Assembly: GCA_000004695.1 (NCBI GenBank) | Contig: CM000151.3 | Span: 1,248,001-1,312,000, forward strand | Length of the DNA stretch: 64,000 bases | Origin: Dictyostelium discoideum | Lineage: Eukaryota | Reading direction: 5' to 3' | Part shown: piece after piece, positions 8,569 through 64,000 of the stretch | Position numbering within the stretch: the first letter of the stretch is position 1 | How the letters are laid out: each line of letters opens with the position of its first letter | The notes under the pieces: model-generated | The model's input: the letters and a program-made list of their open reading frames with translations, nothing else | The model's database searches: none | What the model was told of the DNA's origin: nothing | Translations under genes and position numbers: made by a program

Positions 8569-8633
8569 CCAAAAAAAAAAAAAAAAAAAACTGTGAAGTG
8601 GCTCTTATTGTGCTAAAAAAAAANNNNNNNNNN

Positions 8634-8723
8634 NNNNNNNNNNNNNNNNNNNNNNNNNNNNNNNNNNNNNNNNNNNNNNNNNNNNNNNNNNNNNNNNNNN
8701 NNNNNNNNNNNNNNNNNNNNNNN
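8634..8723. other. Assembly gap (90 N) flanked by long poly(A) and poly(T) tracts
   Basis: Run of N characters. A50 and T30 homopolymers sit on both sides. Confidence 0.99.
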
Positions 8724-14700: not shown

Positions 14701-16157
14701 TTGAAATGAACCAATACAACTTAATTCCATAAATGAAAAACTAACATTACTCTTTGATAAGTATTGATTATTAACATCATAAACATCATCAGCTGTTGCC
14801 ATTACAATCATTGAATAGAATTTATTATTCATTTCACATGTTGTAATTAATTCACTAATTGTTACATTTGAAACACCAGTCACATCAATTATTGAATCGA
14901 ATGTATTATCTTTGAATTTAATTTTATTAATTTCAATACTACCACCATCACTAAAACCTCCTTTTCTAGTTGATATTAATGAGTTTGATATACAATCTTC
15001 AATGAAAATTGAATTCATTATTATTTCAGAACCTTCACTTGAAATTACCATTGGATTTGAACTTCTGTAACCTTTTATTTTTACATTTTCAATTGATACA
15101 TATGAATACCGATAGGCTATAATTATAATTAATGGATCAACTGATTTGGAAAATGTAATGGTTGTATCTATAATTGATAAAAACAATTGATCATTAAATC
15201 AATATTTTTCTAAATAAAATAATTCATTTGTTAATAACTTTTCTATTGGTAAAGTTTGAGAAATCTCTGATTTTGAAACTAAAATAGTTGAACCTTTAGA
15301 ATCTACTGCTGAATCTCTTCATTTTGAATTGGGTAAAATTTAAATCAAATGAACCTAATGAAATTTCAGTTAGATCAAAAATACTATTATCACTAAATGA
15401 TACACCACAACCACTAATACAAATAATATTACTATTACTACTACTACTACTATTACTACTACTATTACTACTACTATTGCTACTACTATCACCGCTACTA
15501 CTATCACTATTTATTAAATTAAAAACAATTCCACCATTTATAAATGATGAGCCAATGAATCTAAATAAACTATTTGTTGCATTTAATTCACCAGTGAAAA
15601 CTGTAAATCTAAAGGTTGAGTTTACGAATACCATTGATGAATTATTTATATTATTTTCATTTTGACTTGGTATACCATAGCGAGTAGTTTATTATAATAT
15701 CATCATTAAAATTTGAAAAACTATTAATAGAATTAATTCCTGTCATATTCAATGTTATGGACCATTAATTATTAAATTTGTATTTTCAAGATTTAAAAAT
15801 AAATTTTCAATTATTGTTTGATTTTGATTAAAATTATACGGAGATATTGAAATATTATTAAAGTTTGAAATTGAGATTGATTGGCAAGTCAGATTATAAT
15901 TTCCATATCCAATATAAATTTTTATAATTGAATTCAAATTATTTTGATTAAAATTAATATTTTCATAATAATTATTATTAAAATTATAAAATGATTGTTG
16001 TAAAATATTATTTAATATACATAAATCTTGGAATGGATTGATTATTGTTCCATTGCTTTCATTATTACTATTAATAATTAATTGTGTTTTGGGAATGAAT
16101 TAAAATATAATTTATTTGAAAAAAGATAAAATAAATTAAAAAAGTTGGTCGTTTCAT
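11741..16157 (-). pseudogene. Degenerate tandem paralog of the downstream Pmp-like/Cys-rich multi-pass membrane gene. It has frameshifts and internal deletions.
   Basis: Seven or more ORF fragments in different frames (15755..15937, 15296..15634, 14110..15186, 13786..14049, 13596..13814, 12541..12909, 11741..12730) are collinear with the intact gene 16510..21657. The ATG at 16157 reads MKRPTFLIYFIFFQ.. and hits a stop after about 28 codons, and homology then resumes in another frame. Overlapping ORFs at 12541..12730 show a frameshift between ..AIDGYYLV and NNDVSMVEQCPLDMC, which is contiguous in the intact copy. The TM region has large deletions. Stretches such as FKPILLIPILVFHLIFALVLSLIKHNSFRIPISQIIIFLQINSVVFFSYSGIYILPLF are near-identical. 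Confidence 0.7.
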
Positions 16158-19500: not shown

Positions 19501-21174
19501 GAATTGAGTTTGAGTGATATTTAAAATTGAACCATTTAAAGTAAACATTTGATAACTTAAACCATGATTACCATCAAATACTGAACTTGCAATGAAAATA
19601 TAATCATCTACTGATGTTATCAATTGACTTTGTGTAAAACTTTGAGAAACATTAACAATATTCATGGAGATCTTTGACCGTGATGAATTGAATAGTTGTT
19701 GACTAACCAATAGAAAGTTAGTCTCACTAATATAAACCAATGAACTCTCTGATTGAATTAAAGATGATGAACTAATTCTACAATTGTTAAATAGTGTAGA
19801 ATATATCTCCAATATCGAGTCATCAGCAACGGTAATTATCGGCTGACTGGTTTGAAGGTCAATAAATTTTGAATTGTTATCAATTAACACAGAGGAATTC
19901 TTCACAGCCATCACTATTGGTACTGCGCTATCAAAGAAATTAGATTGTGATATTGTTATTGAACTTTGTTCGAAATAGAAAAGTTGATTAATTTTACCAA
20001 ATGGATTTGAAATGAAATCACTTGATATAATATTAACTATGCTCCCTTGATAGCCATTTATGAATGAATCACTACCTATTGATATCATTGTTACAAATTC
20101 GAAATTAACAATTGAATTTCTGAACTCAAATGAACCTTCAATAGATTCCAAGAAAATATTAGAGAATTCAATACTACTCGACATTTCGAAACTATTTTCA
20201 TCTTTTGGCATCGACAAAAACTTTTGAATTATATTATTTTGTGTAGAGTTAATTGATAGATTTGAAATTTCAATATTTGATGAATTACGTGCTTCTAACA
20301 TTGTCTCAAAAATACAATTTGTAAAAATTAAATCACTGATTACTAAATTTGTATTCTCCATTGTAAACATTGATGGTGAAACGCAATTATCAAATTCCAC
20401 CAACTCCAATGATATTGTTATATTTCCACCATAGGATGTCGATGCAAACATTGACTCATATTTATGAAATCCTATCATTCTAATATTATACAATATAATC
20501 AATACATCTTGCTCAATATCAAGTGAAACTATTAATGAAAGTGCGCCATATTTAGGATTGGCTCTAAATTCTGAATTTAGAATAGTAATTTTTGAGCCAT
20601 TTTCATTGAATAACTCTTTATCTATATTAATAATGCCAACACTATTATAATATTCTGACCATAATTTTAGGTCATTTTGATTAAATAATATATTTTCAAA
20701 TTTACTATTATCTGCTACTGTAAATAGTACAGTTTCTTGCCATATTGAATTTTTAACATTTATATCACTAAATCCCATTTGAAAGAAACTTCCCATTACT
20801 TTAGAATCTATAATTTCTACTCTACCACCACCACCACTACTAGCGAATTTCGGATTTGAATTGAAATTAATTGATACTTGTTTTAATGTTGATTTTTGAA
20901 AATATAGTAAACTATCCTCTATCATATATTTTTGATCATAGATTGATGATATCATTGTTGAATTTATTAATTTAATCACTGAATTTGAAATTATACTATA
21001 TATATTATATTTATCCTTGAAAATTATATAAGCATTATCTATAATATTCATTTCACTATTACTTATATTCCAACTACCATAAAATGTTATAAAAGGTCCT
21101 TGAATATAAAATTTTGAATTTATTATTTTAAATGAATTATAAATTGAAACTTTTTGTTCTCCTTCTTCTTCTTC

Positions 21175-44720: not shown

Positions 44721-44935
44721 ACCTTTTTTATAATATATTTTAAACTAGTATAACCCTTTTTTACTAAAAATTTTATATGTTCTTGATCAGTTTCATATTT
44801 GTGACCCTCAAAATGTTCACGTGTAAAAGTCCAATAATAATTTTGTGCTGGTTTTGGTAATTTTTGATTAATCGATCTTACTATAGTTCTATACAATGCT
44901 AATGATGCTGGAGAAATTGTATTGGGTTGACCCAT
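44666..44935 (-). CDS. LYR-motif (Complex1_LYR family) small protein; C-terminus uncertain
   Basis: MGQPNTISPASLALYRTIVRSINQKLP..FTREHFEGHKYETDQEHIKFLVKKGYTSLKYIIKK carries the L-Y-R tripeptide and the basic helix pattern of LYRM proteins. The ORF runs into a (TA/AAAATA)n tract. A GTAATT donor after ..KYIIKK is possible. Confidence 0.55.
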
Positions 44936-45360
44936 TTTCGGTTTATTTGGGTATTTTTTTTTTTTTGTTATTTAAATTTATTCTTATTATAGGTGCTGAT
45001 GTATTTGGAATTTTTTGAAATGAAATTAAAAAAAAAAATTAAAAAAGTAAAAAATAAAATTTTAAAAAAAAAAAAAAAAAAAAAAAAGGATTATTTTAAA
45101 AATTTAAAAATATATAAATATATAAAGGCTGATTCACAAATTATTGTCAAAATTAATTTTTCTAAACACTTTGCCCACAAATGAAAATATCTTTTTAAAG
45201 AATATTATGCTTGTTTTGGTATGATTTCCCAATATTTTATTTTATTTTATTTTATTTTATTTTTTTTTTTTTTTTTTTCGACAATTTTTTTTTTTATTTT
45301 ATTTTATTTTTTTTTTTTTTTAATTTTCATTTCAACCATAACGACCAAAACAAAAAAAAA

Positions 45361-48712: not shown

Positions 48713-50183
48713 TTAGTGTAAACCATTTCCATTTCCATTTCCATTTCCATTTCCATTTCCATTTTCATTTTCATTTCCATTTCCATTTCCATTACCATTC
48801 GTAATTTCATTTCCATTTGTTTTTCCATTTGTATTAGTATTTGTATTTTGAAGTTTATTTTCACAACCTGGACAATTATGTAATGATTCATGTATAAATA
48901 GATCACAATCTAAACAAAATATCTCTTGACAACGTGGACATGAAAAAAATAAAGATAATATTGATTTCTCTGATGATGATAAACAACCTATACATGTTAC
49001 ATTTTTATTTAATTCCCTATTATAATAATAATAATGATAATAATTAAGATTAATATAATTATTAATTAATATAAATAAAAATAATAATATAAAACACTTA
49101 CTTCCAATTAACTTCATTAAATAAAGGTATTTGAAATAAATGATGATATGATCTTGCTAAATGAGGTGAAGAAACTAAAGAAAGATTACAAATTTGACAA
49201 TCAGTTGGTAATTCACAAGATTTAACACCACAACGTGGACATATGTAGCCAGAGTATTTCATTTTCTCATGACAAATACAAGGTGATGGTACAGTGGAAG
49301 TGATTTGTTGAGGAAAACCCATTTCAACCAAAGCTGCTTCAGTTTTACCAATGGTTGGTGGTGGTTGACATTTTAACATTAAACTTTCATTGAAATGTTC
49401 TTCATTTAGAATTACTTTTGAGGTACCATTAGTTTGTTCTGCTATAGCCTTACAAATGTATAGTTCGGCAGCCATATGAATGAATGAAACTCTAATGGAT
49501 TCATTCTTTAATGATTGAATTGTTTTTTGTAATGATGAAGGATCGCATGTCGTCAATGATGAGAATATGAATAACACTTCCCTACTACCATACTTTGGTA
49601 CATAGCATAGTGATGATAGTGCAACCTCTAATGAATTTTGAATTGATGGTTCACCTTCCATCGCTATGGCATCTTTCATAGCTTGTATATGTCTTAATCG
49701 GTTACCTGATAGTTCAGAGATTTTCTCTGCTTTACTGTTTTTTGTGATGATAATTGATAATTGTGAGATTGGATTTTGGTCGAAAAATTCCTTTATAAAG
49801 AGTTCAACATTTTGTAAAAGCACTTGATAACGTGATGGTTTTAAATCTTGATTGGATAACGTCTTTGAAAGATCCAATATCAAACATAAATGTCTTTGCA
49901 TACCTCTTCGTACACGTTGATCTTGACTTAATATACCATCCCTATCTTTATTTTTTAATCTACGATTACGTGTATTCCTCTCCTCTTGATTCGATGGTCT
50001 TAATCCATGTTCATCTTCATCTATTGTTAACCATGTCTTTTCAAATCGATTCTCCCATTTATATTTATTTGTTCCATCTTCATCATTGGTTTGTAATACA
50101 TGTGCTGGCCCATCTTCATCATCATATAATGATCTATTGGTCCTTTTATTTTGTGCATTGTTATTATATATATTCTTACTCAT
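48713..50183 (-). CDS. gtf2h2: General transcription factor IIH subunit 2 (p44/Ssl1), two exons: 50183..49102 and 49016..48713
   Basis: It has a vWA-like domain, a C4 zinc finger (CICHEKMKYSGYICPRCGVKSCELPTDCQICNLSL) and a C-terminal RING-like finger (CIGCLSS..CPRCQEIFCLDCDLFIHESLHNCPGC). Intron 49101..49017 (GTAAGT..TTATAG) resolves the overlap between the two track ORFs. The (NG)n tail comes from an (AATGGA)n array. Confidence 0.85.
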
Positions 50184-51620: not shown

Positions 51621-52432
51621 AATTAAAACTAAAAAAAAAAAAAAAAACGACTGTAACCAAGCATTTACATGTATATAATAACAATTTAAAATAAAAATTA
51701 TAATAATAATAAAATATTATTATCCAATACCTTTTTTTTATTTATCTTTTTTTTTTTAAACAACTAATGACCCATCTAAAAAAAACAGATTTAAATTTAT
51801 AAACCTGTTTTTTTTTTTAACAACGAATGATGCCCATAAATTTAAAATGAACCAGACGAACCAACTTACTGCTCACTTAAACCCTAAAATACATAATCTA
51901 TAATTAATATTAGTAACAACAAATACCTCAACCCAAAAAAAAAAAAAAAAAAAAAGAGTCCAAAAACCAAAAAAAATTAAAAAACATATTATCATTATTA
52001 TTTTTTTATTTTTTTTTCGTATTAATTAATATGCAGGTGCGTCTTTTTTGTTTTGTTGGTTATGTGGCAACAGAATGTTAAAAAAAAGGTTAACAATTAA
52101 AACAATTTTCTGATAAATATCTAGTCATTTATTTTTTTTTTTTAAAAAAAAACAGATCCCATATCATAAAAACAACTCGATTTCAAAAGTAAAAAAAAAA
52201 AAAAAGATTCACAGGTCGGAAAATAATAAAAAAAGGTTCACAGGTCGGAAAAAATAAAGATATTTTCTCACAGCAGAAGATATTTTTTTTTTTTTGGGTA
52301 TTCTTTTCATTTTTTTTTTTATTTTTTGGTATTCTTTTCATTTTTTTTTTTATCTGGTAATAATATGATGTGTCATTTTTTTTTTTTTTTTTCATTTTGT
52401 TTTTTAATTATTTTTTAGTATATAGATTTTAA

Positions 52433-52831
52433 ATGGGGAAATTTTTTATTTGTTTTTTGATGTGTTCAATGTTTTTTTGTTTTGTTAATTGTGTTGAACC
52501 TCCAAAAGATGAATATGACTGTTTCTTTAATTTTATTACAAAAATAAACCTTTTTTCATTCTTTCCAAAAATCAATGCCACTCACTATAATTTTTGTTCA
52601 GTTAATATTAAGTGTGATGAAGTTACTGGAACAATAAAAGAGTTTGTATTTTATTTTTATTTTATTTTATTTTATTTTATTTTATTTTTTATATTATTTT
52701 AACAAACTTTATTAAATATAATTTATTTTATAGTGTTACTATATTAAACACATTAACTAGTGGATATAACAACCAAGCAATACTGCCAACAGATTTAGCG
52801 TGTCTTCCTAATTTTAGTAGAATGTATGTAT

Positions 52832-52868
<37 letters not shown>

Positions 52869-55800
52869 CCTATTAAACGTCATAATATAATATATAGATT
52901 TTTACAAAATTTAAATATTTCAAAAGAACTTGTATTTTATCAATTCCCACAAACAATTTATGAAGTAACATATAATTATGAAAACTATGCTTGTAGTCCA
53001 ATTGATCAAAAATTACCTGATATTCCATCTTTGTAAGTATACGGATATATTTTTTTTTTTTTTTTTTTTTTTGATTAAATAAAAAAGTAATCTAAAATAA
53101 TATTTTATTTTTAGTTTTTTTTATTGTAAATCCATTTCCGGAACAAGAATAAAAATGTCACACATAATGAATCAGAGACTTTTTAATTTAAAATATAGTT
53201 ACGTATATTTTGAAAACGATGTTATTGCAACGCATAATATCTCAATGGTTGCGTTTACAGCAACTTCATTAAACTTTGCAGACTTTTCAAACTTTAAGAG
53301 TTTACAAACTTTCTCAATGTATTTTAATCAAGATTTTGTAATTTCATCAATCCAAAACTTTTCAACAATTATTGCAAATTCCATACAAATAGAGCACGAC
53401 ACAGGTATTTTGTATCCATTTTATATACCATTAAATAATTTCACTCAATTACTAGCAATAACCGCACTTTTTGAAAAACCAATTTCATTAATAAATCTTT
53501 CAACTTATGGTTTTAAGCAACTGCATCTTTTGCATGTTGGAAACGAGTTTAATTTAAATGGTGAGATTCCGATAATTCCACCTCATGATTGCTATTTTTT
53601 AGTATACTATGGCAATTTTAATGTATTTCCAAATTTTTCAATTATTACAGGATCTTTTGGTTCTTATCAGTCAAACTTTTCAATTACTTTACCACCATAT
53701 TCAGGTAAAGGTGCAATGATCTCTTTAATAAACAATAACCTTATTGGAACAATTGATGAATCTTGGTGTAATGTCAATTTGGTAATTTATAAAAATAAAT
53801 TAACAGGGTATGTTTAAAAAAATATATAAATTGCGCAAATTTAACTATCTAACTTTTTTTTTTTTTTCAATTAATAGAAAAATACCTTCATGTTTTACTT
53901 GTTATTTTTCAGATCCCTCTATATTTAATTATTTTTCTGGTAACCAATTTACAAACTACAACCAATCAATTGGATGTTCTGAATTTGCACCAAGATTTCA
54001 ATTATTGGACATTTCAACCAAAACTTTCCGTGTAACAGGTATTAATATAGGTTTTTATCCTAATAATTGGTTATTAAACTCAGTTGATTCCCCATATAGT
54101 ACTCAAATTATCTCAATGGGGTATGAATATGTTGTGATGTACTTATTTTCAATAATACCAAGTCCAAAATACTTTAATGTTACATTTGTGCATCCAGCAC
54201 CATCACGAACAATATCATTCCCTCTTGGTTATCAATTCCCAAATCCAACAGGTATAAAAATAACAGCAAATCAATTAATAATTACAGGTGAACTATTTTC
54301 AAGTTATATGGGTTACTCAGATCAATCAGTCCAATTTGAAGAAACATCTACTAATTGTACAATAAAAGATGGTAATTTCTTTAATATAACTTGTGAATTT
54401 GTACCATCATCTATTTCTACCTTAACATACCCAACAATCATTAAAATTAAAAATGATAATTTAACACCTAAATCAAATTCCATGTCCTAATAATTGCGAT
54501 GATATTAATAATAGTATTTGTGATCTTTCTAAGGGTATTTGTGTCCCACCTTGTAAAAATGATTGTGGAATATTCGGTGAATGTAATGATCAAACTGGAG
54601 AGTGTGATTGTGATTCAAACCATCAAGGTCCAAATTGTTCTGTACCATTTAAACAATGTCCAACAGGTTCAAATTCTTTAATTTGTAGTAGTGCAGATTA
54701 CAATATGTGTAACAATCAAACTGGTATTTGTACATGTTCTCCTAGTCAACAAGGTCAAAATTGTTCATTACCATTTAAACAATGTCCAGTTGGCTCGGAT
54801 TCTTTAATATGTAGTGGAGGTAATAACAATTGTAATAATCAAACAGGTATTTGTTATTGTGATTCAAACCATCAAGGATCTGCTTGTTCAATACCATTTA
54901 AACAATGTCCAGTTGGTTTGGATTCTTTAATTTGTAGTGGAGGTGACAATAATTGTAATAATCAAACTGGTGTTTGTACTTGTTCTCCAAGTCAACAAGG
55001 CTCTGATTGCTCATTACCATTTAAACAATGCCCAGTTGGTTTAGATTCATTAGTATGTAGTGGAGATTACAACAACTGTAATAATCAAACAGGTATTTGT
55101 TATTGTGATATTAAATTTACAAATGATGATTGTTCAAAACCAAATCAATATATATCATCTGTTTCACCATCGACCACAAATGGAGGTGAGGCATCATTTT
55201 TTGGTTGGTTTGGAGATATTCATTCAAATCCATCATTATTAATTGGAGCTCAACAATGTCAACCAATAACATATAATTCTTCAATCGAAATTAGATGTAT
55301 TGCACCACCAGGTAATGGAGTATATGATATTACTTTTAATCAAAATGATATCATGTATCAATTAAGAAATGGTTATAGTTACCTTGAAATTTTTAAAAAT
55401 TGTCCAAACAATTGTACAAATTCAAATCAAGGAAATTGCAATACTTCAAATGGAGAATGTAATTGTATAAACAATTACTATTCATTCGATTGTAGTTTAA
55501 AAAGAAATAATAACACAGGTGGTAACAATGGTGGTAACAATGGTGGTAACAATGGTGGTAACAATGGTGGTAATCCCTCGATTGATCCATCAACAGGTGG
55601 AACTAATATTACTGATAATCAAGTAAATTTCCAAATTTATTTTAAAAATTTATTTGAAATTGATTTCAACGGTAATATTGTAAATCAATATTCATTGCAA
55701 AGTAATTGGACTCTCAATAAGACTAAAGATTCACAAGAAAATAATATTTACAAATTAACACAAATCATTCAACAATCATGTGAAATTGTAACATTGATAG

Positions 55801-56396
55801 AAGAAGTTTCAACATCTAAACAATATTCATTTGCAGGCTCAACATTCACATTAGATGCTGGTTCAATTAAATTAACAATTTCGATATCAAATTATATTTA
55901 TAATAGCAGTTTAAATACATTACAACTTCAATTAATATCATCAGTAGATAATGAAAGTGAAGGATCAGATTGTAATATTAAACAAGTTTCTACAAATGAA
56001 ACCAATACATCCTCATTTAAATATATTAAAATTTCAAAAGATAATAGAGTCCTTCAAGGTAGATTCATTAATCAAATACTATCAGATGGAAGACCAACAT
56101 ATTTATCAATTGATGTTAATAATAATGGTAATTCAGTAATTGCAACATTAAATCTACCACATTTTGTAAACCAATCAATTATCGATCCAGACTTTTCAGT
56201 TTTACTCGAAACTGATTTTAAATCGGAATGTGACAATAAAAACTCTCGTAAATGGTTAATACCAGTTGCTGTGGCAGTCCCAATCGTTGGTCTTTGTTCT
56301 ATTGGAGTGATTGTATATTTTTTATATAGAAAACATTTTGTTGAAATACCTCTAAAAGTTAAATTACAAAGTATTGGAAATAAAATAAATAAATAA
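52433..56396 (+). CDS. Copy 1 of a paralog family: signal peptide, plant-type LRR, EGF-like Cys repeats, single TM. Multi-exon. It carries a frameshifting indel near 54462 and may be a pseudogene.
   Basis: Exons:
- A: 52433..~52641, signal peptide MGKFFICFLMCSMFFCFVNC.
- B: 52734..52823.
- C: 52898..53032.
- D: 53115..53807, LRRs (LHLLHVGNEFNLNGEIPIIPP, LINNNLIGTIDESW).
- E: 53877 onward.
Donors include GTATGT and GTAAGT. Relative to copy 2, 36 nt (..RRVIVNPLIGQL..) are replaced by 4 nt at about 54462, which shifts the frame: frame 2 stops at 54490 and frame 0 reopens at 54465. Frame 0 then runs through the (CNNQTGxCxC..PFKQCPVG..LICSG)x5 repeats, the TM (WLIPVAVAVPIVGLCSIGVIVYFLY) and the stop at 56396. 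The exon A donor phase is uncertain. Confidence 0.6.
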
Positions 56397-57299
56397 AAAA
56401 CCTTTACATTAAAATGTAAATCGTCCCTCATATTTTATTTTATATTTTAATTTATTTGTAAATCATTTGAAAAAAAAAAAAAAGAAAAAAAACAGACTGG
56501 ATACATACTTTAGTTTTTATATTTTATATTATTTTGTATTTTTGGTTGAGTTTCTTTTTTTAAATACTAAATTCATATTAAAAATTAAATCATTTGATTT
56601 TTTTTATTTTAAGTGTATATATTATTATTATAATTATTATTATTTTATTTTATTTTTTTCGGATTAAACTTTGATAAAAAAAATGTAATAAATATGAATT
56701 TTGTGTGTAATTTTTTTTTTTTTTACACAAGCAATACAAAACAAAGCTTTTTTTCCAATTTTTTTTATATTTGTCGAGCAATAAAAAAAAAAAAAAAAAG
56801 CAGCTGAAAATCAAATAAAATTAAAAAAATAATTATTTTTTTTCCTCGTCTTGCTTGATTAATATTCAGATATGACTCAATAATTATCTTTTTTTTTTAT
56901 GAAATTTTGTTTTTATTTTTTTTTCTCCTCTTGCTTAATTGATATGCAGATATGACCTAATAAGAAGAGATATTGAATTTTTTTCCATAGATTGTATCAC
57001 CAAAAGAATCTATTTATGTTTGATTTGGAAAGACACTAAATTTAAAAAAAAAAAAAAAATAATTATTAAGTGCAAAAAAAAAAGATATTATAACAAAAAA
57101 AAAAAAAAAAATGGAAAAAAAAATCAAAAAAAAAAAAATCTTTTTTTATGTGCGACAACTATTTATTTTTTAAAAATGATATGGGATCTGTTTTTTTTTT
57201 TTTTTTTTTTTTAAAAAAATCTTTTTTTTTAAAATATTTGAGGTTTTTTACGAAACATTTTTTTTTATATTTTATTTTCACAAAATAAAAAATAAGCCA

Positions 57300-57348
57300 A
57301 AAAATACCCATTGCGTTATAATATGATGTGGCTTAAAAGAATTTTTTT

Positions 57349-57384
<36 letters not shown>

Positions 57385-57873
57385 TTTTTTAATTTTTATT
57401 TAGTATATAGATTTTATATTTTTGTAATAAAATTAAAGAAACAGTCATATTCATCTTTTGGAGGTTCAACACAATTAACAAAACAAAAAAACATTGAACA
57501 CATCAAAAAACAAATAAAAAATTTCCCCATTTAAAATCTATATACTAAAAAATAATTAAAAAACAAAATGAAAAAAAAAAAAAAAAATGACACATCATAT
57601 TATTACCAGATAAAAAAAAAAATGAAAAGAATACCAAAAAATAAAAAAAAAAATGAAAAGAATACCCAAAAAAAAAAAAATATCTTCTGCTGTGAGAAAA
57701 TATCTTTATTTTTTCCGACCTGTGAACCTTTTTTTATTATTTTCCGACCTGTGAATCTTTTTTTTTTTTTTTACTTTTGAAATCGAGTTGTTTTTATGAT
57801 ATGGGATCTGTTTTTTTTTAAAAAAAAAAAATAAATGACTAGATATTTATCAGAAAATTGTTTTAATTGTTAA
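57300..57873. repeat. Rearranged 5' region of paralog copy 2. A segment homologous to the copy-1 promoter plus signal-peptide exon is present in inverted orientation, flanked by inverted repeats of about 100 bp.
   Basis: 57417..57526 is the reverse complement of copy-1 52433..52548 (the ATG and signal-peptide coding sequence). 57527..57873 is the reverse complement of copy-1 ~52087..52432. 57311..57416 matches copy-1 52340..52432 in direct orientation. This creates inverted repeats at 57311..57416 and 57527..57640 (about 85% identity, including the shared 17-mer tagtatatagattttaa) around a 110-bp core. The junction ttaattgttaa|aaatcaatgcc lies inside exon A. Confidence 0.8.
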
Positions 57874-58142
57874 AAATCAATGCCACTCACTATAATTTTT
57901 GTTCAGGTAATATTAAGTGTGATGAAGTTACTGGAACAATAAAAGAGTTTGTATTTTATTTTTATTTTTTATTTTTTATTTTTTATATTTTTTATATTTT
58001 TTATATTATTTTAACAAACTTTATTAAATATAATTTATTTTTTAGTGTTACTATATTAAACACCTTAATTAGTGGATATAATAACCAATCAATATTGCCA
58101 ACAGATTTAGCGTGTCTTCCTAATTTTAGTAGGATGTATGTA

Positions 58143-58174
<32 letters not shown>

Positions 58175-61100
58175 TTCCCATTAAACGTCATAATATAATA
58201 TATAGATTTTTACAAAATTTAAATATTTCAAAAGAACTTGTATTTTATCAATTCCCACAAACAATTTATGATGTAACATATAATTATGAAAACTATGCTT
58301 GTAGTCCAATTGATCAAAAATTACCTGATATTCCAACTTTGTAAGTATATGGATATATATTTTTTTTTGACTAAATAAAAAAGTAATCTAAAATAATATT
58401 TTATTTTTAGTAATTTTAATTGTAAATCCATTTCCGGAACAACAATAAAAATATCGCACATAATGAAACAGAGAGTTTTTAATTTAAAATATAGTTACGT
58501 ATATTTTGAAAATGATGTTATTGCAACTCATAATATCTCAATGTCTACATTTACAGCAACTTCATTAAACTTTGCAGACTTTTCAAACTTTCAGAGTTTA
58601 CAAACTATCTATATATATTTTAATCAAGATTTTGTTATTTCATCAATCCAAAACTTTTCAACCATTAAATCAAATTCCCTACATATAGAGCACGACACAG
58701 GTATTTTGTATCCATTTTATATACCATTAAATAATTCCACTCAGTTGCTATCAATGGCCGCACTTTTTGAAAAACCAATTTCATTAATAAATCTTTCAAC
58801 TTATGGTTTTAAGCAACTGCATCTTTTGCATGTTGGAAACGAGTTTAATTTAAATGGTGAGATTCCGATAATTCCACCTCTTAGTTGCGATTTTTTAATA
58901 TTCTATGGCAATTTTAATGTATTTCCAAATTTTTCAATTATTACAGGATCTTTTAGTTCTTATCAGTCAAACTTTTCAATTGCTTTACCACCATATTCAG
59001 GTAAAGGTGCAATGGTCTCTCTAATAAACAATAACCTTTTTGGAACAATTGATGAATCTTGGTGCAATGTCAATTTGGTAATTTATAATAATAAATTAAC
59101 AGGGTATGTTTAAAAAAATATAAAATTAATAATTTATTCAAATTTAAACATATCTAACTTATTTTTTTATAATAAAAAGAAAAATACCTTCATGTTTTAC
59201 TTGTTATTTTTCAGTCGCATCTTTTTTTAATTATTTTTCTGGTAACCAATTTACAAACTACAACCAATCAATTGGATGCTCTGAATTTGCACCAAGATTT
59301 CAATTATTAGACATTTCAACCAAAACTTTCCGTGTAACAGGTATTAATATAGGTTTTAATTCTAGATATTGGTTATTAAACTCAGTTGACTTTCCATATA
59401 GTACCAACGTTATCTCAATGGGATATGAATATGTTGTGATGTACTTATTTGCAATAATACCTAATCCAAAATACTTTAATGTTACATTTGTGCATCCAGC
59501 ACCATCACGAACAATATACTTCCCTCTTGGTGATCAATTCCCAAATCCAACCGGTATTAAAATAACATCAAATCAATTAATAATTACAGGTGAATTATTT
59601 TCAAGTTATATGGGTTACTCAAATCAATCAGTCCAATTTGAAGAAACATCTACTAATTGTACAATAAAAGATGGTAATTTCTTTAATATAACTTGTGAAT
59701 TTGTACCATCATCTATTTCTACCTTAACATACCCAACAATCATTAAAATTAAAAATGATAATTTAATAAGAAGAGTAATTGTCAATCCATTAATTGGACA
59801 ACTAAATCAAATTCCATGTCCTAATAATTGCGATGATATTAGTAATAGTATTTGTGATCTTTCTCAGGGTATTTGTGTCAAATCTTGTAAAAATGATTGT
59901 GGAATATTCGGTGAATGTAATGATCAAACTGGAGAATGTGATTGTGATTCAAATCATCAAGGTCCAAATTGTTCTATACCATTTATGCAATGTCCAACAG
60001 GTTCAAATTCTTTAATTTGTAGTAGTGCAGATTACAATATGTGTAACAATCAAACTGGTATTTGTACATGTTCTCAAAATCAACAAGGTCAAGATTGTTC
60101 ATTACCATTTAAGCAATGTCCAGTTGGTTCAGATTCGTTAATATGCAGTGGAGGTAATAACAATTGTAACAATCAAACAGGTGTTTGTACTTGTTCTTCA
60201 AGTCAACAAGGTCAAGATTGCTCATTACCATTTAAACAATGTCCAGTTGGTTTGGATTCGTTAATATGTAGTGGAGGTAATAACAATTGTAACAATCAAA
60301 CTGGTATTTGTTATTGCGACAGTAAATTTACTAATATTGACTGTTCAAAACCAAATCAATATATATCATCTGTTTCACCATCAAATACAAATGGAGGTGA
60401 AGCATCATTTTTTGGTTGGTTTGGAGATATTCATTCAAATCCATCATTATTAATTGGAAATCAACAATGTCAACCAATTACATATAATTCTTCAATCGAA
60501 ATTAGATGTATTGCACCACCAGGTAATGGAGTATATGATATTACTTTTAATCAAAATGATATCATGTATAAATTAAGAAATGGTTATAGCTACCTCGAAA
60601 TTTTTAAAAATTGTCCAAACAATTGTACAAATTCAAATCAAGGAAATTGCAATACTTCAAATGGAGAATGTAATTGTATAAACAATTATTACTCATTCGA
60701 TTGTAGTTTAAAAAGAAATAATAATACAGGTGGTAACAATGGTGGTAATCCCTCGATTGATCCATCAACAGGTGGAACTAATATTACTGATAATCAAGTA
60801 AATTTCCAAATTTATTTTAAAAATTTATTTGAAATCGATTTCAACGGTAATATTGTAAATCAATATTCATTACAAAGTAATTGGACTCTCAATAAGACTA
60901 AAGATTCACAAGAAAATAATATTTATAAATTAACACAAATCATTCAACAATCATGTGAAATTATAACATTGATAGAAGAAGTTTCAACATCTAAACAATA
61001 TTCATTTGCAGGCTCAACATTCACATTAGATGCTGGTTCAATTAAATTAACAATTTCAATATCAAATTATATTTATAAAAGCAGTTTAAATACATTACAA

Positions 61101-61568
61101 CTTCAATTAATATCATCAGTAGATAATGAAAATGAAGGATCAGATTGTAATATTAAACAAGTTTCTACAAATGAAACCAATACATCCTCATTTAAATATA
61201 TTAAAATTTCAAAAGATAATAGAGTCCTTCAAGGTAGATTCATTAATCAAATACTATCAGATGGAAGACCAACATATTTATCAATTGATGTTAATAATAA
61301 TGGTAATTCAGTAATTGCAACATTAAATCTACCACATTTTGTAAATCAATCAATTATCGATCCAGACTTTTCAGTTTTACTCGAAACTGATTTTAAATCG
61401 GAATGTGACAATAAAAACTCTCGTAAATGGTTAATACCAGTTGCTGTGGCAGTCCCAATCGTTGGTCTTTGTTCTATTGGAGTGATTGTATATTTTTTAT
61501 ATAGAAAACATTTTATTGAAATACCTCTAAAAGTAAAATTAGCAAGTATTGGAAATAAAACAAAATAA
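57874..61568 (+). CDS. Copy 2 of the LRR, EGF-like, TM paralog family. It has an intact ORF from mid exon A through the stop, with the 5' signal-peptide exon disrupted by the inversion. Exons: ~57874..57946, 58046..58135, 58206..58340, 58411..59103, 59180..61568.
   Basis: Collinear with copy 1 and carries the same splice sites. LRR exon D is 58411..59103. Exon E is continuous through the five Cys repeats, the TM helix and the stop at 61568, with no frameshift here. In direct orientation, the sequence upstream of 57874 is the inverted promoter rather than the start of exon A. Confidence 0.6.
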
Positions 61569-61840
61569 ATAAATAAAAAACTTTTACATTAAAAAGTAAA
61601 ATTGTTCCTATTATTTTATTTTTTAATTTATTTGTAAATATCATTTAATAGATTAAGTTTTTATTTTTATTTTTTTTTTTTTTTTTTTTTGTTTTTATTT
61701 TTATTTTTAGGTTTAATTAATTAATTAATTTTCATTTATAAAATCATTATAAAATGAAACTTTATTTATACTTTATTAATTTTTAATATAATAAAATACT
61801 GATAATACAAATATTTATTTTTTGATGCAAGTTAACATTT

Positions 61841-62637
61841 TTATAATCTATTTGAGCTTGATGGGATTGAAACTTTGCCAGAACAAGTATCAAAACCATC
61901 AACTTCAGGGCAATCCATAATTGAGAGTGTTTTTTTATCAATACATAATGCAATAGTTGATAATTTATTATTATCACATTGCATAACTGGTTGGCCACCA
62001 AATTGACTATTAATTGCACTTGAAATTGAATCGGATTCATAGGTATCTTGATCTGATGGGTAAATATTTTCTGAAATTAATGCAGATGTTAAATTATGTT
62101 GAGTATATAATTTGAGACCAGCAACAAAATAATCATGTTCATTTGAAATTGGTGAACCTGCTACAACTGCGCATGTACCTATAGATAAATAAATAAATTA
62201 ATTGGTTAAATTATTTATTATTTTTTATTTATTATTTATTATTTATTATTTATTATTTATTATTATTTATTTTTAATATTGAATATTAAGTGTACACATA
62301 CCATGTTTTTTATATTCACTTGTCCAGAATAAATCATTATCTTCAGTTAATGAAATCCAATCAACATTTAATTGATCTTCTAAATCTGAAATTTCACCTA
62401 AATCAAATGATGGACCAGTACAGAAAGCTGGATAGGAGTTGTTTCTGTCGTTTGGCCATAATCCATGAATTGTAAATGCTTCTCTTTCTTTATTTTCAAT
62501 ACATTTGCTTTCACTACAATATGAATAAATCCATTGTTGAACGAATAAATAGTAATCAAAATCACCCGGCGTTGTATCTGATGAACCTGATGATGAATCC
62601 CATCTAGTTTCGTTTGAATTTACTATTTTAAATTATA

Positions 62638-62718
<81 letters not shown>

Positions 62719-62835
62719 TAGTTAAATATTAATATATATATAGTAATTTATATTAAAATGTTAAAAATTATATATCTTCATACCTGATAAAACAATTAAT
62801 AGTACAGATAAAATTAAAATAATTAATTTATTCAT
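61841..62835 (-). CDS. Ribonuclease T2 family, secreted, three exons: 62835..62784, 62622..62302, 62178..61841
   Basis: Signal peptide MNKLIILILSVLLIVLS. CAS I motif FTIHGLWP. CAS II motif LFWTSEYKKHG|TCAV is split by intron 2 (62301..62179, GTATGT..CTATAG). Intron 1 (62783..62623, GTATGA..AAATAG) holds an (ATT)n repeat. The C-terminal Cys pattern is typical of T2 RNases. The ORF-track ORFs 61783..62040(-) and 62290..62475(+) are out of frame or antisense. Confidence 0.8.
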
Positions 62836-62863
62836 TTTTAATTATTTTTTTTTTAAAAGAGTG

Positions 62864-62907
<44 letters not shown>

Positions 62908-63272
62908 GATTGTTTTACGAGTGGTTTAAAAAATTAATTTTTTTTTTTTTTTTTATTTTTATTTTTTATTTTTAAATAATTTTTGTACAATAAATGACCC
63001 GAAAAGAATATTCTAAACCAAAAAGAAAATTCTGTTAATGTTAAACCTGAAAATATTTTTTTTTTTTTTTAATTATTTTATGTACTAAATTCATATTAAA
63101 ATGAATGACAAATAAAATAAATTGTAAAAAAAAAAAAAATTAAAAAAATAAAATGATTAAATTCATTTTTTTTATTTTATATCATTTTGTATATTTTTAT
63201 ATACTAAATTCATGTTAAAAATAAATATAATTAATTTTTGTGGTTTCGCATTCTCCCCTCACAAAAATTTAC

Positions 63273-63305
<33 letters not shown>

Positions 63306-63861
63306 ATTCACAGAAAAAATAAAAAAAAAAGAGCATTCAAAGTAAAAAAAAAAAAAAAAAAAATGGAAATAAAATGAAAAAATAGCAAAGATTAAATTTT
63401 AATTTTTTTTTTTTTTTTTTTTTTTGTTTTTAACATAAAGATGAAAAATAATCATTTCAGATTTTTATTTTTCAAAGGTCATTGACGTCACCAAAAAAAA
63501 AAAAGGAAGGAGCTGTGCATTGAGGACTTTGGTTAGATATTAAAAAAAAAAAAAATCAAATCTTTTTATTCCCAATATAAATATCTCAATATTTTTATTT
63601 TTTTTTTATTATTTTTTTTTTTTTTTTTTTTTTTTTTTCAAAAATCAGATTACCGTATCATTTTCAAATAAAACCAATTTAATTATCAAAATAAATTATT
63701 AAAAAAAAAAATATGTTTTTTTTTCCCTGTTGGAGGATATTTTTTTTTGTCAACAATAAAAAAAAAAAAAAAACCCATTAATTATTTTCATATTTTTCAT
63801 TTTGTTTTTTTTTTTTCCTAATATTTTTTTTTTGATTTTAAGTTAATACTTAGATTTTAAA

Positions 63862-64000
63862 TGGGTAAATTTATTATTTGTTTTTTATTGTGTTCAATGT
63901 TTTTTTGTTATGTTAATTGCATTGAACCTCCAATAGATGAATATGACTGTTTCCTTAATTTTATTACAAAAATAAACTTTTTGTCAATTTTTCCAAAAAC
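63862..64000 (+). CDS. Start of a third paralog of the LRR, EGF-like, TM family (signal-peptide exon), 3' partial at the window edge
   Basis: ATGGGTAAATTTATTATTTGTTTTTTATTGTGTTCAATGTTTTTTTGTTATGTTAATTGCATTGAACCTCCAATAGATGAATATGACTGTTTCCTTAATTTTATTACAAAAATAAAC.. gives MGKFIICFLLCSMFFCYVNCIEPPIDEYDCFLNFITKIN. That is 85-90% identical to copy-1 exon A and in the same direct orientation. Confidence 0.7.

Follow-up and report, generated by a model that had tools for sequence, protein, structure and literature searches.

We estimate at roughly 80% the probability that the analysed window, a 64,000-nt stretch of chromosome 2 of D. discoideum AX4, holds the 5' end of a ComC-family tandem array with at least five genes, in which copies 1 and 2 are young pseudogenes produced by ordinary lesions and an inverted repeat is a mutational scar and not a switch. 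The three copies in the window are DDB_G0272330 (annotated partial), DDB_G0272334 and DDB_G0272336, which are already annotated genes for ComC-family surface proteins. A sequence-only reading of this DNA had proposed three head-to-tail copies, and this arrangement was confirmed by direct-orientation matches between 52567-56463 and 57872-61639 (identity 90-97%) and between 52373-52571 and 63797-63999 (87%). The RNase T2 gene that it placed between copies 2 and 3 was also recovered; it possesses the HGLWP and KHGTC catalytic motifs, and syntenic RNase T2 genes were called in loci L001-L004 and L006. Copy 3 had been described as normal at its 5' end and, in fact, its translation from 63861, MGKFIICFLLCSMFFCYVNCIEPPIDEYDCFLNFITKINFLSIFPK, is exactly the N-terminus of P0036 (DDB_G0272336). 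Copies 4 and 5 follow the complete copy 3 beyond the window, as seen in L006, and copy 3 and the copies beyond it remain intact. The features are as follows.

52090..52546, + strand: left arm of the inverted repeat, 457 nt, 100% complementary to 57417-57873
52433..56396, + strand: copy 1, ComC-like, frameshifted (translation and splice model); N-terminal part annotated as DDB_G0272330 'partial'
52433-52641, 52734-52823, 52898-53032, 53115-53807, 53878-56396, + strand: copy 1 exons (splice model)
54465..54468, + strand: copy 1 lesion, CACC instead of 36 nt, net -32 nt
54582..55109, + strand: tandem 123-nt (41-aa) EGF-like repeats of copy 1 (Tandem Repeats Finder, period 123, 4.3 copies)
56835..57416, + strand: upstream region and proximal promoter native to copy 2, direct orientation, ending 2 nt before the expected ATG
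57417..57873, - strand: right arm of the inverted repeat, perfect inverted duplicate of 52090-52546
57874..61568, + strand: copy 2 body, DDB_G0272334; frame fully open, without start codon or signal peptide
57874-57946 (rest of exon A), 58046-58135, 58206-58340, 58411-59103, 59180-61568, + strand: copy 2 exons
59948..60311, + strand: tandem 123-nt EGF-like repeats of copy 2 (Tandem Repeats Finder, 2.9 copies)
61841..62835, - strand: RNase T2 gene, exons 62835-62784, 62622-62302 and 62178-61841 (PF00445, E=1.1e-51)
63861..64000, + strand: 5' end of copy 3, DDB_G0272336, intact, direct orientation, continuing past the window edge

Domain architecture and likely function

The gene product is a type I membrane glycoprotein. 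A signal peptide is followed by an internalin-like LRR solenoid, two beta-sandwiches and a variable number of 41-aa EGF-like units; next come an IPT/TIG-like domain, a further EGF and a beta-supersandwich, and the protein ends with a TM helix and a tail some 25 residues long. In the Pfam scan, all four ComC-specific domains matched far above their gathering thresholds (LRR_ComC, E=9e-93; ComC_SSD, E=3e-72; and the two ComC beta-sandwiches), together with EGF_2, and there is a single hydrophobic helix, WLIPVAVAVPIVGLCSIGVIV. The signal peptide, LRR, EGF and one-TM architecture proposed earlier was thus upheld. Two details of that proposal stood only in part: five EGF-like repeats occur in copy 1 but four in copy 2 by motif counts, and among the LRRs only the last two or three conform to the plant-type NxLxGxIP motif. 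The AlphaFold2 model had pLDDT >90 throughout the LRR region, with strands about every 23 residues (read from the strand list), and its fold matches included LRR proteins, internalin A among them, along with the EBF IPT/TIG domain and supersandwich domains. No PDB relative of the LRR domain was detectable by sequence.

The array genes share with the ComC family (LRR_ComC PF24141, Beta-sand_ComC PF24142 and PF24143, ComC_SSD PF22933) the full domain set in the same order, as well as the signal peptide, EGF-like repeats and single TM helix. However, they are only about 33-44% identical to the more distant members recovered by our protein similarity search, so that we call them family members, not orthologs, of ComC, and they differ from ComC in being arranged in tandem with copy-number variation. 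ComC is developmentally essential, has a signal peptide, TM helix and EGF domains, and is found in group 4 dictyostelids only (PMC4931340). In our protein similarity search the relatives of the array genes came from Dictyostelium species only, which fits this restriction. By domain architecture and analogy with ComC, the array proteins most likely act as receptors for extracellular binding or adhesion, and we infer that the fast-evolving LRR end sets specificity while the conserved membrane-proximal part is structural. A further difference from ComC is that the array genes have no known developmental phenotype. The one paralog knocked out, the intact DDB_G0272364, was picked as a target in a screen for genes whose induction comes early in dedifferentiation; its knockout behaved as wild type in the dedifferentiation assay, one narrow assay (PMC7190356).

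Lesions of copies 1 and 2

The spliced model of copy 1 was 100% identical to P0048 (DDB_G0272330, 457 aa). The replacement of 36 nt by 4 nt, claimed in the sequence-only reading to shift the frame, proved correct. The copy 2 counterpart of the lost 36 nt is TAAGAAGAGTAATTGTCAATCCATTAATTGGACAAC (59767-59802), and these 36 nt are kept in 15 of 15 other copies from six loci. A premature stop follows downstream of CACC at 54488-54490; both halves of the gene are otherwise open, with no second defect, and no plausible intron that could rescue the frame was found. An end-joining-type deletion with a 4-nt filler would produce such a frameshift.

In copy 2, the promoter and signal-peptide exon had been thought to be inverted. 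An inverted segment is indeed present at 57417-57873; however, it does not derive from the 5' end of copy 2 itself but is a 100% identical inverted duplicate of the copy 1 sequence, and it belongs to the sole long, high-identity inverted repeat within the window. The left arm contains the promoter and 5' UTR of copy 1 (52090-52432) and then its first 114 coding nt, which encode the signal peptide and about 18 further residues. The right arm stands in for about 136 nt of copy 2, comprising 1 nt of 5' UTR and the signal-peptide coding start, and as placed it offers only a 38-aa ORF (MGKFF...ITKI, then stop). The native promoter of copy 2, which shares about 85% identity with that of copy 1, is kept in direct orientation up to 57416, and 56835-57416 aligns collinearly with the copy 2 upstream region of strain ACTFIW (L001 9387-9963, 81%). 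In the alignments the breakpoint falls directly after GATTTTA, where the native sequence goes on as AATGGG. The copy 2 body matched P0003 with 99% identity over 96% of the query. By our own reading an in-frame TAA (57864-57866) lies immediately 5' of this body, and the deposited copy 2 model begins at ATG 57653, within the inverted promoter. One break-repair or replication template-switch event may have copied 457 bp of copy 1 in inverted orientation, and the copied patch would have removed the start codon and signal peptide of copy 2. Copy 2 could be transcribed from its retained promoter.

Authenticity, age and origin of the lesions

Arms that are 100% identical amid surroundings diverged by 3-10% might be the look of a mis-join, and probable low-quality reference stretches (57074-57366) adjoin the patch, as would be expected if the indel and the inverted 457-bp patch were assembly or cloning errors of the 2005 Sanger AX4 reference. 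However, the independent contig-level assembly GCA_054883475.1 (loci L006 and L007), from a near-identical strain and collinear with the window across 32 kb at 99.56%, carries the identical frameshift sequence (from L006 position 613 on), both inverted-repeat junctions and both arms. The junction sequences occur verbatim in L006 at 3549 and 4002 and also in L007, where the arms (15346-15802 and 20654-21108) differ from each other by two 1-nt homopolymer lengths only. This assembly shows 41 small differences from the reference in the 21.9 kb compared and is therefore not a copy of it, so both lesions are true sequence and not the assembly errors that the sequence-only reading had named as its possible refutation. 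Furthermore, the patch has two clean junctions back to collinear sequence, which a single chimeric clone would not give, and an artefact is extremely improbable. Should GCA_054883475.1 be AX4 itself, the comparison would still exclude assembly error but would not date the lesions (wild NC4 isolate versus laboratory).

Neither lesion occurs in four other strains or sibling species, in which the array is collinear. Strain ACTFIW, for example, carries both genes intact at the syntenic places, copy 1 with 1244 aa and copy 2 with 1200 aa. The two arms match at 100%, whereas dS between copies 1 and 2 is 0.085-0.12. Identical arms could also be expected of an old inverted duplication kept uniform by continuing gene conversion, in the style of palindrome arms, and gene conversion is clearly active in the array, where C-terminal thirds cluster by strain. 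We consider this unlikely, since neither the two other D. discoideum strains nor the two D. cf. discoideum assemblies examined have the arrangement, the arm boundaries are sharp with diverged sequence directly outside, and the copy 2 frame has no second defect though its start codon is missing, which argues for a short time since that loss. The lesions thus appear to be lineage-specific and recent in the AX4 lineage and, being real and recent, would make copies 1 and 2 young pseudogenes.

A regulated rearrangement had also been suggested as a possibility. In a programmed form of it, the inverted repeats would act as an on/off switch for family members, in the manner of phase or antigenic variation. 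A 4.87-kb segment lies between the perfect 457-bp inverted repeats, each arm carries a promoter and start codon, and their geometry allows inversion by homologous recombination. However, a flip, when worked through, only moves copy 1 to the opposite strand, where it is rejoined to the other arm; no flip gives copy 2 a start codon or signal peptide, and the gene between the arms, copy 1, is itself frameshifted. The same orientation was found in two AX4-lineage assemblies, and 12 of 12 ComC-like 5' ends in other strains were direct and none inverted (L001-L004, the four loci with a detected 5' end). No recombinase domain was found among ten large ORFs scanned. A programmed switch is accordingly very hard to sustain, and the inverted piece stems from a single duplication in inverted orientation. 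Bacterial invertible promoter switches of the fim and hin type likewise associate inverted repeats with a promoter, but there the promoter sits between the arms, whereas in the array it sits inside them, without a recombinase, in a single orientation and with no on/off effect of inversion. The one-off duplication resembles the products of microhomology-mediated break-induced replication, template switching and end-joining: a short segment inverted a few kb off, local sequence replaced, junctions that are blunt or show 2 nt of microhomology, and absence of a target-site duplication. The difference is that in the array the mechanism is read from junctions only, with neither an intermediate nor a second, independent case seen. 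We infer repair at both lesions from their sequences, the copy 2 event from its two junctions, which by sequence and alignments are blunt on the left and a 2-nt (AA) microhomology on the right.

Array dynamics and sequence divergence

At the syntenic loci of other D. discoideum strains, D. cf. discoideum and D. firmibasis, the number and arrangement of ComC-like copies differ, and the loci also contain gene fragments, a split copy, an RNase T2 relic (between the copies in ACTFIW) and a DDE transposase insertion. Birth-and-death evolution of the family, as proposed earlier, is borne out by this varying copy number, by the fragments and relics, and by the two freshly disabled copies of the AX4 lineage. 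In trees, LRR exons cluster by ortholog across strains and the C-terminal third by strain, which supports concerted evolution in which the 3' thirds undergo gene conversion. The array changes by unequal crossing-over (gain and loss of copies), conversion of the 3' third and decay of single copies, processes that are evidenced by the comparison of strain sequences.

The pattern had further been likened to self/non-self recognition loci. The tgrB1/tgrC1 allorecognition locus also encodes surface glycoproteins with a variable extracellular end in multigene clusters that contain pseudogenes. A polymorphic locus of this kind, for self/non-self or partner recognition, would be under diversifying selection, with copy loss as allelic diversification. 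It would fit the strain differences in copy number, a nucleotide divergence of the genes about twice that of the flanks, and the LRR exon being the most variable part: dN/dS drops along the gene from 0.59 in the LRR exon to 0.40 in the beta-sandwiches and 0.24 in the C-terminal part, and the LRR exon reaches 0.78-0.86 for copy 1 and copy 2 orthologs, with one 25-codon window at 1.0. However, the ortholog dS (0.065-0.12) is not above that of the flanking Ssl1 gene (0.081), and thus gives no sign of long-lived balanced alleles. dN exceeded dS in 0 of 361 pairwise comparisons, whole-segment dN/dS was above 1 in no gene pair, and sliding 25-codon windows barely reached 1.0-1.1 in 2 of 79 cases. 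The genes are of the ComC type, not the multi-IPT/TIG Tgr type, and stand head-to-tail, in contrast to the divergent ligand-receptor pair of tgrB1/tgrC1. Relaxed constraint explains the high dN/dS together with freshly dead copies equally well. The recognition claim was therefore not borne out, and we regard such a locus as improbable. Plant LRR receptor and resistance-gene clusters, which evolve by birth and death, differ from the array in domains, since its proteins have no kinase or NB-ARC and their LRR domain forms a separate Pfam family; in the array, positive selection at the LRR surface is at most a candidate. They are alike in their tandem LRR-ectodomain genes, unequal crossing-over, gene conversion and frequent pseudogenes, in the LRR part evolving fastest, and in the NxLxGxIP motif found in the array's last LRRs.

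Gene array, neighbours and encoded proteins

The window is AT-rich (G+C about 22%) and below 52 kb it carries housekeeping genes (SNF2/RING helicase, kinase, Spt6, Arm-repeat protein, C2 protein, TAF9 and Ssl1). Further to the right lies an array of ComC-like genes, for which the sequence-only reading had proposed head-to-tail copies with an RNase T2 gene between copies 2 and 3. Both points were confirmed: self-comparison returned direct matches of 52567-56463 with 57872-61639 (90-97% identity) and of 52373-52571 with 63797-63999 (87% identity), and the intervening gene matched the RNase T2 family. The features are as follows.

Features of the array (window coordinates)
52090-52546: left arm, copy 1 promoter and first 114 coding nt
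52433 to 54488-54490, plus: copy 1 (DDB_G0272330), open frame from ATG to stop
54465-54468: CACC, lesion of copy 1
57417-57873: right arm, inverted patch before copy 2
57874 to 61566-61568, plus: copy 2 (DDB_G0272334), frame open to the stop in a five-exon gene model
61841-62835, minus: RNase T2 gene (PF00445, E=1.1e-51)
about 63.9 kb, plus: start of copy 3 (DDB_G0272336)

Protein searches assigned the window to chromosome 2 of D. discoideum AX4: the translation of copy 2 was 99% identical to DDB_G0272334. The annotated DDB_G0272330, a partial protein, is 100% identical to the N-terminal half of copy 1 and confirmed the splice joins of the five-exon model, and the N-terminus of DDB_G0272336 corresponds to the first 46 residues of copy 3. 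Past the window end the array of the AX4 lineage runs on with DDB_G0272336, DDB_G0272364 and DDB_G0272366. The family and its genes are already in public annotation and Pfam, and our gain is corrective: corrected structures, pseudogene calls and a warning on the deposited DDB_G0272334 model. This model (P0003, 1146 aa) is a chimera without signal peptide, of which the first 33 residues (window 57653-57751) start at an ATG within the inverted copy 1 promoter, whereas the last ~43 (61875-62006) are encoded by an ORF on the plus strand that runs antisense to exon 3 of RNase T2. The RNase T2 translation has both catalytic histidine motifs, FTIHGLWP and EYKKHGTC, and a perfect (AAT)27 lies in intron 1 of the gene (62638-62718). 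No tRNA or Rfam match was found across the whole 64-kb window. An assembly gap of 100 N between long A and T homopolymers (8624-8723) is distant from the array.

Pfam assigned the whole ComC-specific domain set to the window protein: an N-terminal LRR_ComC (PF24141, E=8.9e-93, 311 bits against a cut-off of 27, profile positions 1-288 of 288), a first and a second Beta-sand_ComC (PF24142, E=3.7e-9; PF24143, E=2.4e-22), EGF_2 after the beta-sandwiches (E=9.4e-10) and a C-terminal ComC_SSD (PF22933, E=3.1e-72, positions 2-222 of 222), followed by a 21-residue hydrophobic run that makes a single TM helix (residues 1126-1146). Relatives in the protein search were restricted to Dictyostelium species, and a PDB sequence search gave no match. 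An AlphaFold2 model was built on an intact ortholog from another strain; its LRR region had pLDDT >90, with beta strands every ~23 residues as read off the strand list. Because the model is multi-domain (pTM 0.48), the whole-model fold search was weak and gave domain-wise matches only. In Foldseek, the LRR region matched internalin A, LRRC8 and SDS22, and the supersandwich matched GLMP, kojibiose phosphorylase and glycoside phosphorylases and the YidC periplasmic domain.

The architecture of the sequence-only reading stood with two corrections, one concerning the repeats and the other the nature of the inverted segment. Five EGF-like repeats had been given to each copy; the 41-aa unit (a 123-nt tandem repeat) occurs five times in copy 1 but four times in copy 2. 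Similarly, the plant-type consensus LxxLxLxxNxLxGxIP holds for the last two or three LRRs (NNLFGTID, NKLTGKIP and NLNGEIP), whereas the remaining ones are irregular. A coding microsatellite, (GGTGGTAACAAT)n, has 4.7 units in copy 1 (55518-55573), translated as a GGNN repeat, and two units at its copy 2 counterpart (60735-60752), as read from the translations.

From this layout we infer type I surface proteins in which a variable LRR tip sits on a conserved stalk; by analogy with ComC, their most likely role is that of receptors for binding or adhesion. ComC is developmentally essential, has a signal peptide, a TM helix and EGF domains and is found in group 4 dictyostelids only (PMC4931340). 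DDB_G0272364, an intact paralog, was a knockout candidate among genes induced in early dedifferentiation with minimal developmental expression, and its knockout behaved as wild type in the PCNA-induction (dedifferentiation) assay (PMC7190356).

Lesions in copies 1 and 2

The 36-nt to 4-nt replacement proposed for copy 1 was found as described. Its frame is broken because CACC at 54465-54468 stands for 36 nt that are present in copy 2 and every other copy (15 of 15 retain them). Past 54490 the sequence is open again, one position out of frame, to a stop at 56394-56396. A rescuing intron around 54465 was considered and rejected: 39 GT..AG pairs have a frame-restoring spacing, not one of them with a consensus-like donor, and the stretch is 73% A+T while real introns have 84-95%.

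For copy 2, the claim had been that its own promoter and signal-peptide exon were inverted. An inverted segment is indeed present, but it is a duplicate of copy 1 sequence. The stretch 57417-57873 is 100% complementary to 52090-52546, and the two form the sole long, high-identity inverted repeat in the 64 kb. The native upstream region of copy 2 persists in direct orientation, ~81-85% identical to its counterparts, so that copy 2's own 5' end was not simply turned round. When aligned to copies 1 and 3 and to the syntenic copy 2 of another strain, this native region ends at 57416, 2 nt short of the expected ATG, and direct homology restarts at 57872-57874 (copy 1 52567-52569), indicating that ~136 nt of copy 2 were swapped for a 457-nt inverted copy 1 duplicate. 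Copy 2 thereby lost its ATG, signal peptide and another ~25 codons. Of the two junctions, the left is blunt and the right has AA in common. There were 0 differences in the 457 nt, three quarters of them non-coding, whereas copies 1 and 2 elsewhere differ by dS 0.085-0.12, so the copy is very recent or under continuing conversion. The 38-aa ORF specific to the junction was not on record in read-level assemblies.

An assembly artefact would explain both lesions, and it was ruled out with GCA_054883475.1 (locus tags ACTFIT), whose sequence runs collinear with 36745-64000 of the window (99.56%). It has the frameshift sequence and both patch junctions verbatim, and both arms are present, differing from each other by two 1-nt homopolymer lengths only. 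Only homopolymer lengths and two clusters of intergenic substitutions distinguish it from the reference and thus make it an independent sequence; over 32 kb not one coding position differs, so the strain must be either AX4 itself or very close to it. The locus is a clean, doubly confirmed case of a small inverted duplication in place of a gene's 5' end. On the sequence, DDB_G0272330 and DDB_G0272334 are best regarded as putative young pseudogenes, and the reference strain or its lineage would be without two ComC-like genes that are intact in other isolates. The two tight substitution clusters (44761-45088 and 57074-57366, A/T-rich intergenic) have the look of poor-quality reference sequence, because at 57074-57366, which directly adjoins the inverted patch, the new assembly matches an outgroup strain.

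Several smaller features were seen in the upstream regions. An apparent older inverted promoter copy at 57044-57171 (77% BLAST match) was rejected as A-rich low complexity, because matches as good occur all over the window and only one 15-mer is specific. This 15-mer, ATGATATGGGATCTG, lies at 52153-52167 (-), 57176-57190 (+) and 57796-57810 (+), three occurrences against 0.15 expected by chance. In the native sequence upstream of copy 1 it runs opposite to its counterpart upstream of copy 2, and the D. discoideum assembly ACTFIW has it with two mismatches at the copy 2 position. This points to a promoter element that works in either orientation or to a small inversion of older date. The copy 1 promoter (52191-52353) has tandem repeats of a 29-nt unit x2.3 (containing GATTCACAGGTCGG) and a 31-nt unit x2.3 (containing GGTATTCTTTTCATTT), which recur in the inverted arm, and the copy 3 promoter (63285-63360) has 2.6 copies of a 29-nt unit of another sequence. 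Such repeats are possible regulatory elements.

The sequence-only reading had also raised regulated rearrangement, and our results did not support it. The left arm is followed by the rest of copy 1, intergenic DNA and the native copy 2 promoter, then by the oppositely oriented right arm and the copy 2 body. When recombination between the arms was worked out, the inter-arm segment was reversed and copy 1, now on the other strand, was joined to the right arm; at the left arm, reading then ended in the 38-aa dead end that the right arm now has, and the copy 2 body was still headless. Such a flip leaves copy 2 without a start codon and is thus functionally neutral. The gene between the arms, copy 1, is itself frameshifted. 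A programmed invertible switch shows both orientations and altered expression, whereas here a single orientation of the inter-arm segment was found in 2 of 2 assemblies and the flip only re-orients copy 1. A scan of the window's ten largest ORFs showed no recombinase, and a DDE_1 transposase occurred in the array of one other strain only (cfY, a D. cf. discoideum). We concluded that the repeat is a scar, probably left by one event of repair or template switching.

Other strains and mode of evolution

Syntenic loci in other strains and species
D. discoideum ACTFIW (L001): intact copy 1 (1244 aa), intact copy 2 (1200 aa), RNase T2, copy 3
D. discoideum ACTFIR (L002): ComC_SSD fragment, RNase T2, then three copies
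D. cf. discoideum cfY (L003): split copy (209 + 887 aa), DDE_1 transposase inside the array
D. cf. discoideum cfZ (L004): three copies
D. firmibasis (L005): at least 2 copies

The gene order of ACTFIW is collinear with AX4, and all 12 ComC-like 5' ends in other strains are in direct orientation. Copy number and arrangement varied among strains, which bears out the proposed birth-and-death evolution; concerted evolution is to be added to it. In neighbour-joining trees the LRR exon grouped by ortholog across strains (AX4 copy 1 with ACTFIW copy 1; AX4 copy 2 with ACTFIW copy 2), while the C-terminal third grouped by strain, a signature of gene conversion. The 5' LRR part evolves by descent, whereas gene conversion homogenises the 3' part.

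Mean pairwise divergence along the gene
LRR exon: dN/dS 0.59, dS 0.31
Beta-sandwiches: dN/dS 0.40, dS 0.23
C-terminal part: dN/dS 0.24, dS 0.18

The mean dN/dS dropped along the gene and did not exceed 1 in any pair; in sliding 25-codon windows, 2 of 79 reached ~1.0-1.1 (LRR exon 1.02; C-terminal part 1.11).

RNase T2 3'-end relics of 160-180 nt (L001 8839-8997 and L002 18520-18687) sit downstream of other ComC-like copies, indicating that the ancestral duplication unit held part of the RNase T2 gene. In ACTFIW a 162-nt relic lies between copies 1 and 2; AX4 has none there. In cfY the split copy (209-aa and 887-aa calls), probably another pseudogene, and the 541-aa transposase gene occupy L003 14420-18220 and 20121-21976.

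Self/non-self recognition

Kinship to self/non-self recognition loci, also suggested earlier, was not borne out by comparison with the Tgr system (tgrB1/tgrC1). Tgr ectodomains have repeated IPT/TIG domains, whereas the window protein had no PF01833 (IPT/TIG) match at E<=0.1 and only one IPT/TIG-like fold match in Foldseek, a domain of EBF1. The tgr genes form an adjacent divergent ligand-receptor pair, whereas the ComC-like copies are head-to-tail on one strand at every locus. Tgr allelic polymorphism is exceptional against its background, whereas between AX4 and ACTFIW the dS of ComC-like orthologs (0.065-0.12) was not above that of the flanking Ssl1 (dS 0.081, dN 0.005). Only dN was raised (dN/dS 0.15-0.86, two to three strains compared), so the ~two-fold higher nucleotide divergence of the array reflects amino-acid change and not old balanced alleles. 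This would fit fast or relaxed evolution of a putative ligand-facing end. These sequence comparisons argue against a tgr-like hyperpolymorphism.

A different kind of recognition locus may be imagined, varying in copy number, in which the fast-evolving LRR ends would bind partners that differ among strains, e.g., other amoebae or prey bacteria, and intact members would be switched on when feeding resumes. In the AX4 lineage, a copy 2 transcript would have a 457-nt leader perfectly antisense to the copy 1 5' end and facing a convergent promoter, a natural source of double-stranded RNA that could silence paralogs. We give this combined reading a probability of only about 7%. If the variable LRR ends did mediate strain or prey recognition, the array would be of greater significance. 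As a minor observation, the housekeeping Ssl1 (window 49101-50183) has dS ~0.08 and dN 0.005 between ACTFIW and AX4; their split is surprisingly deep for one nominal species.
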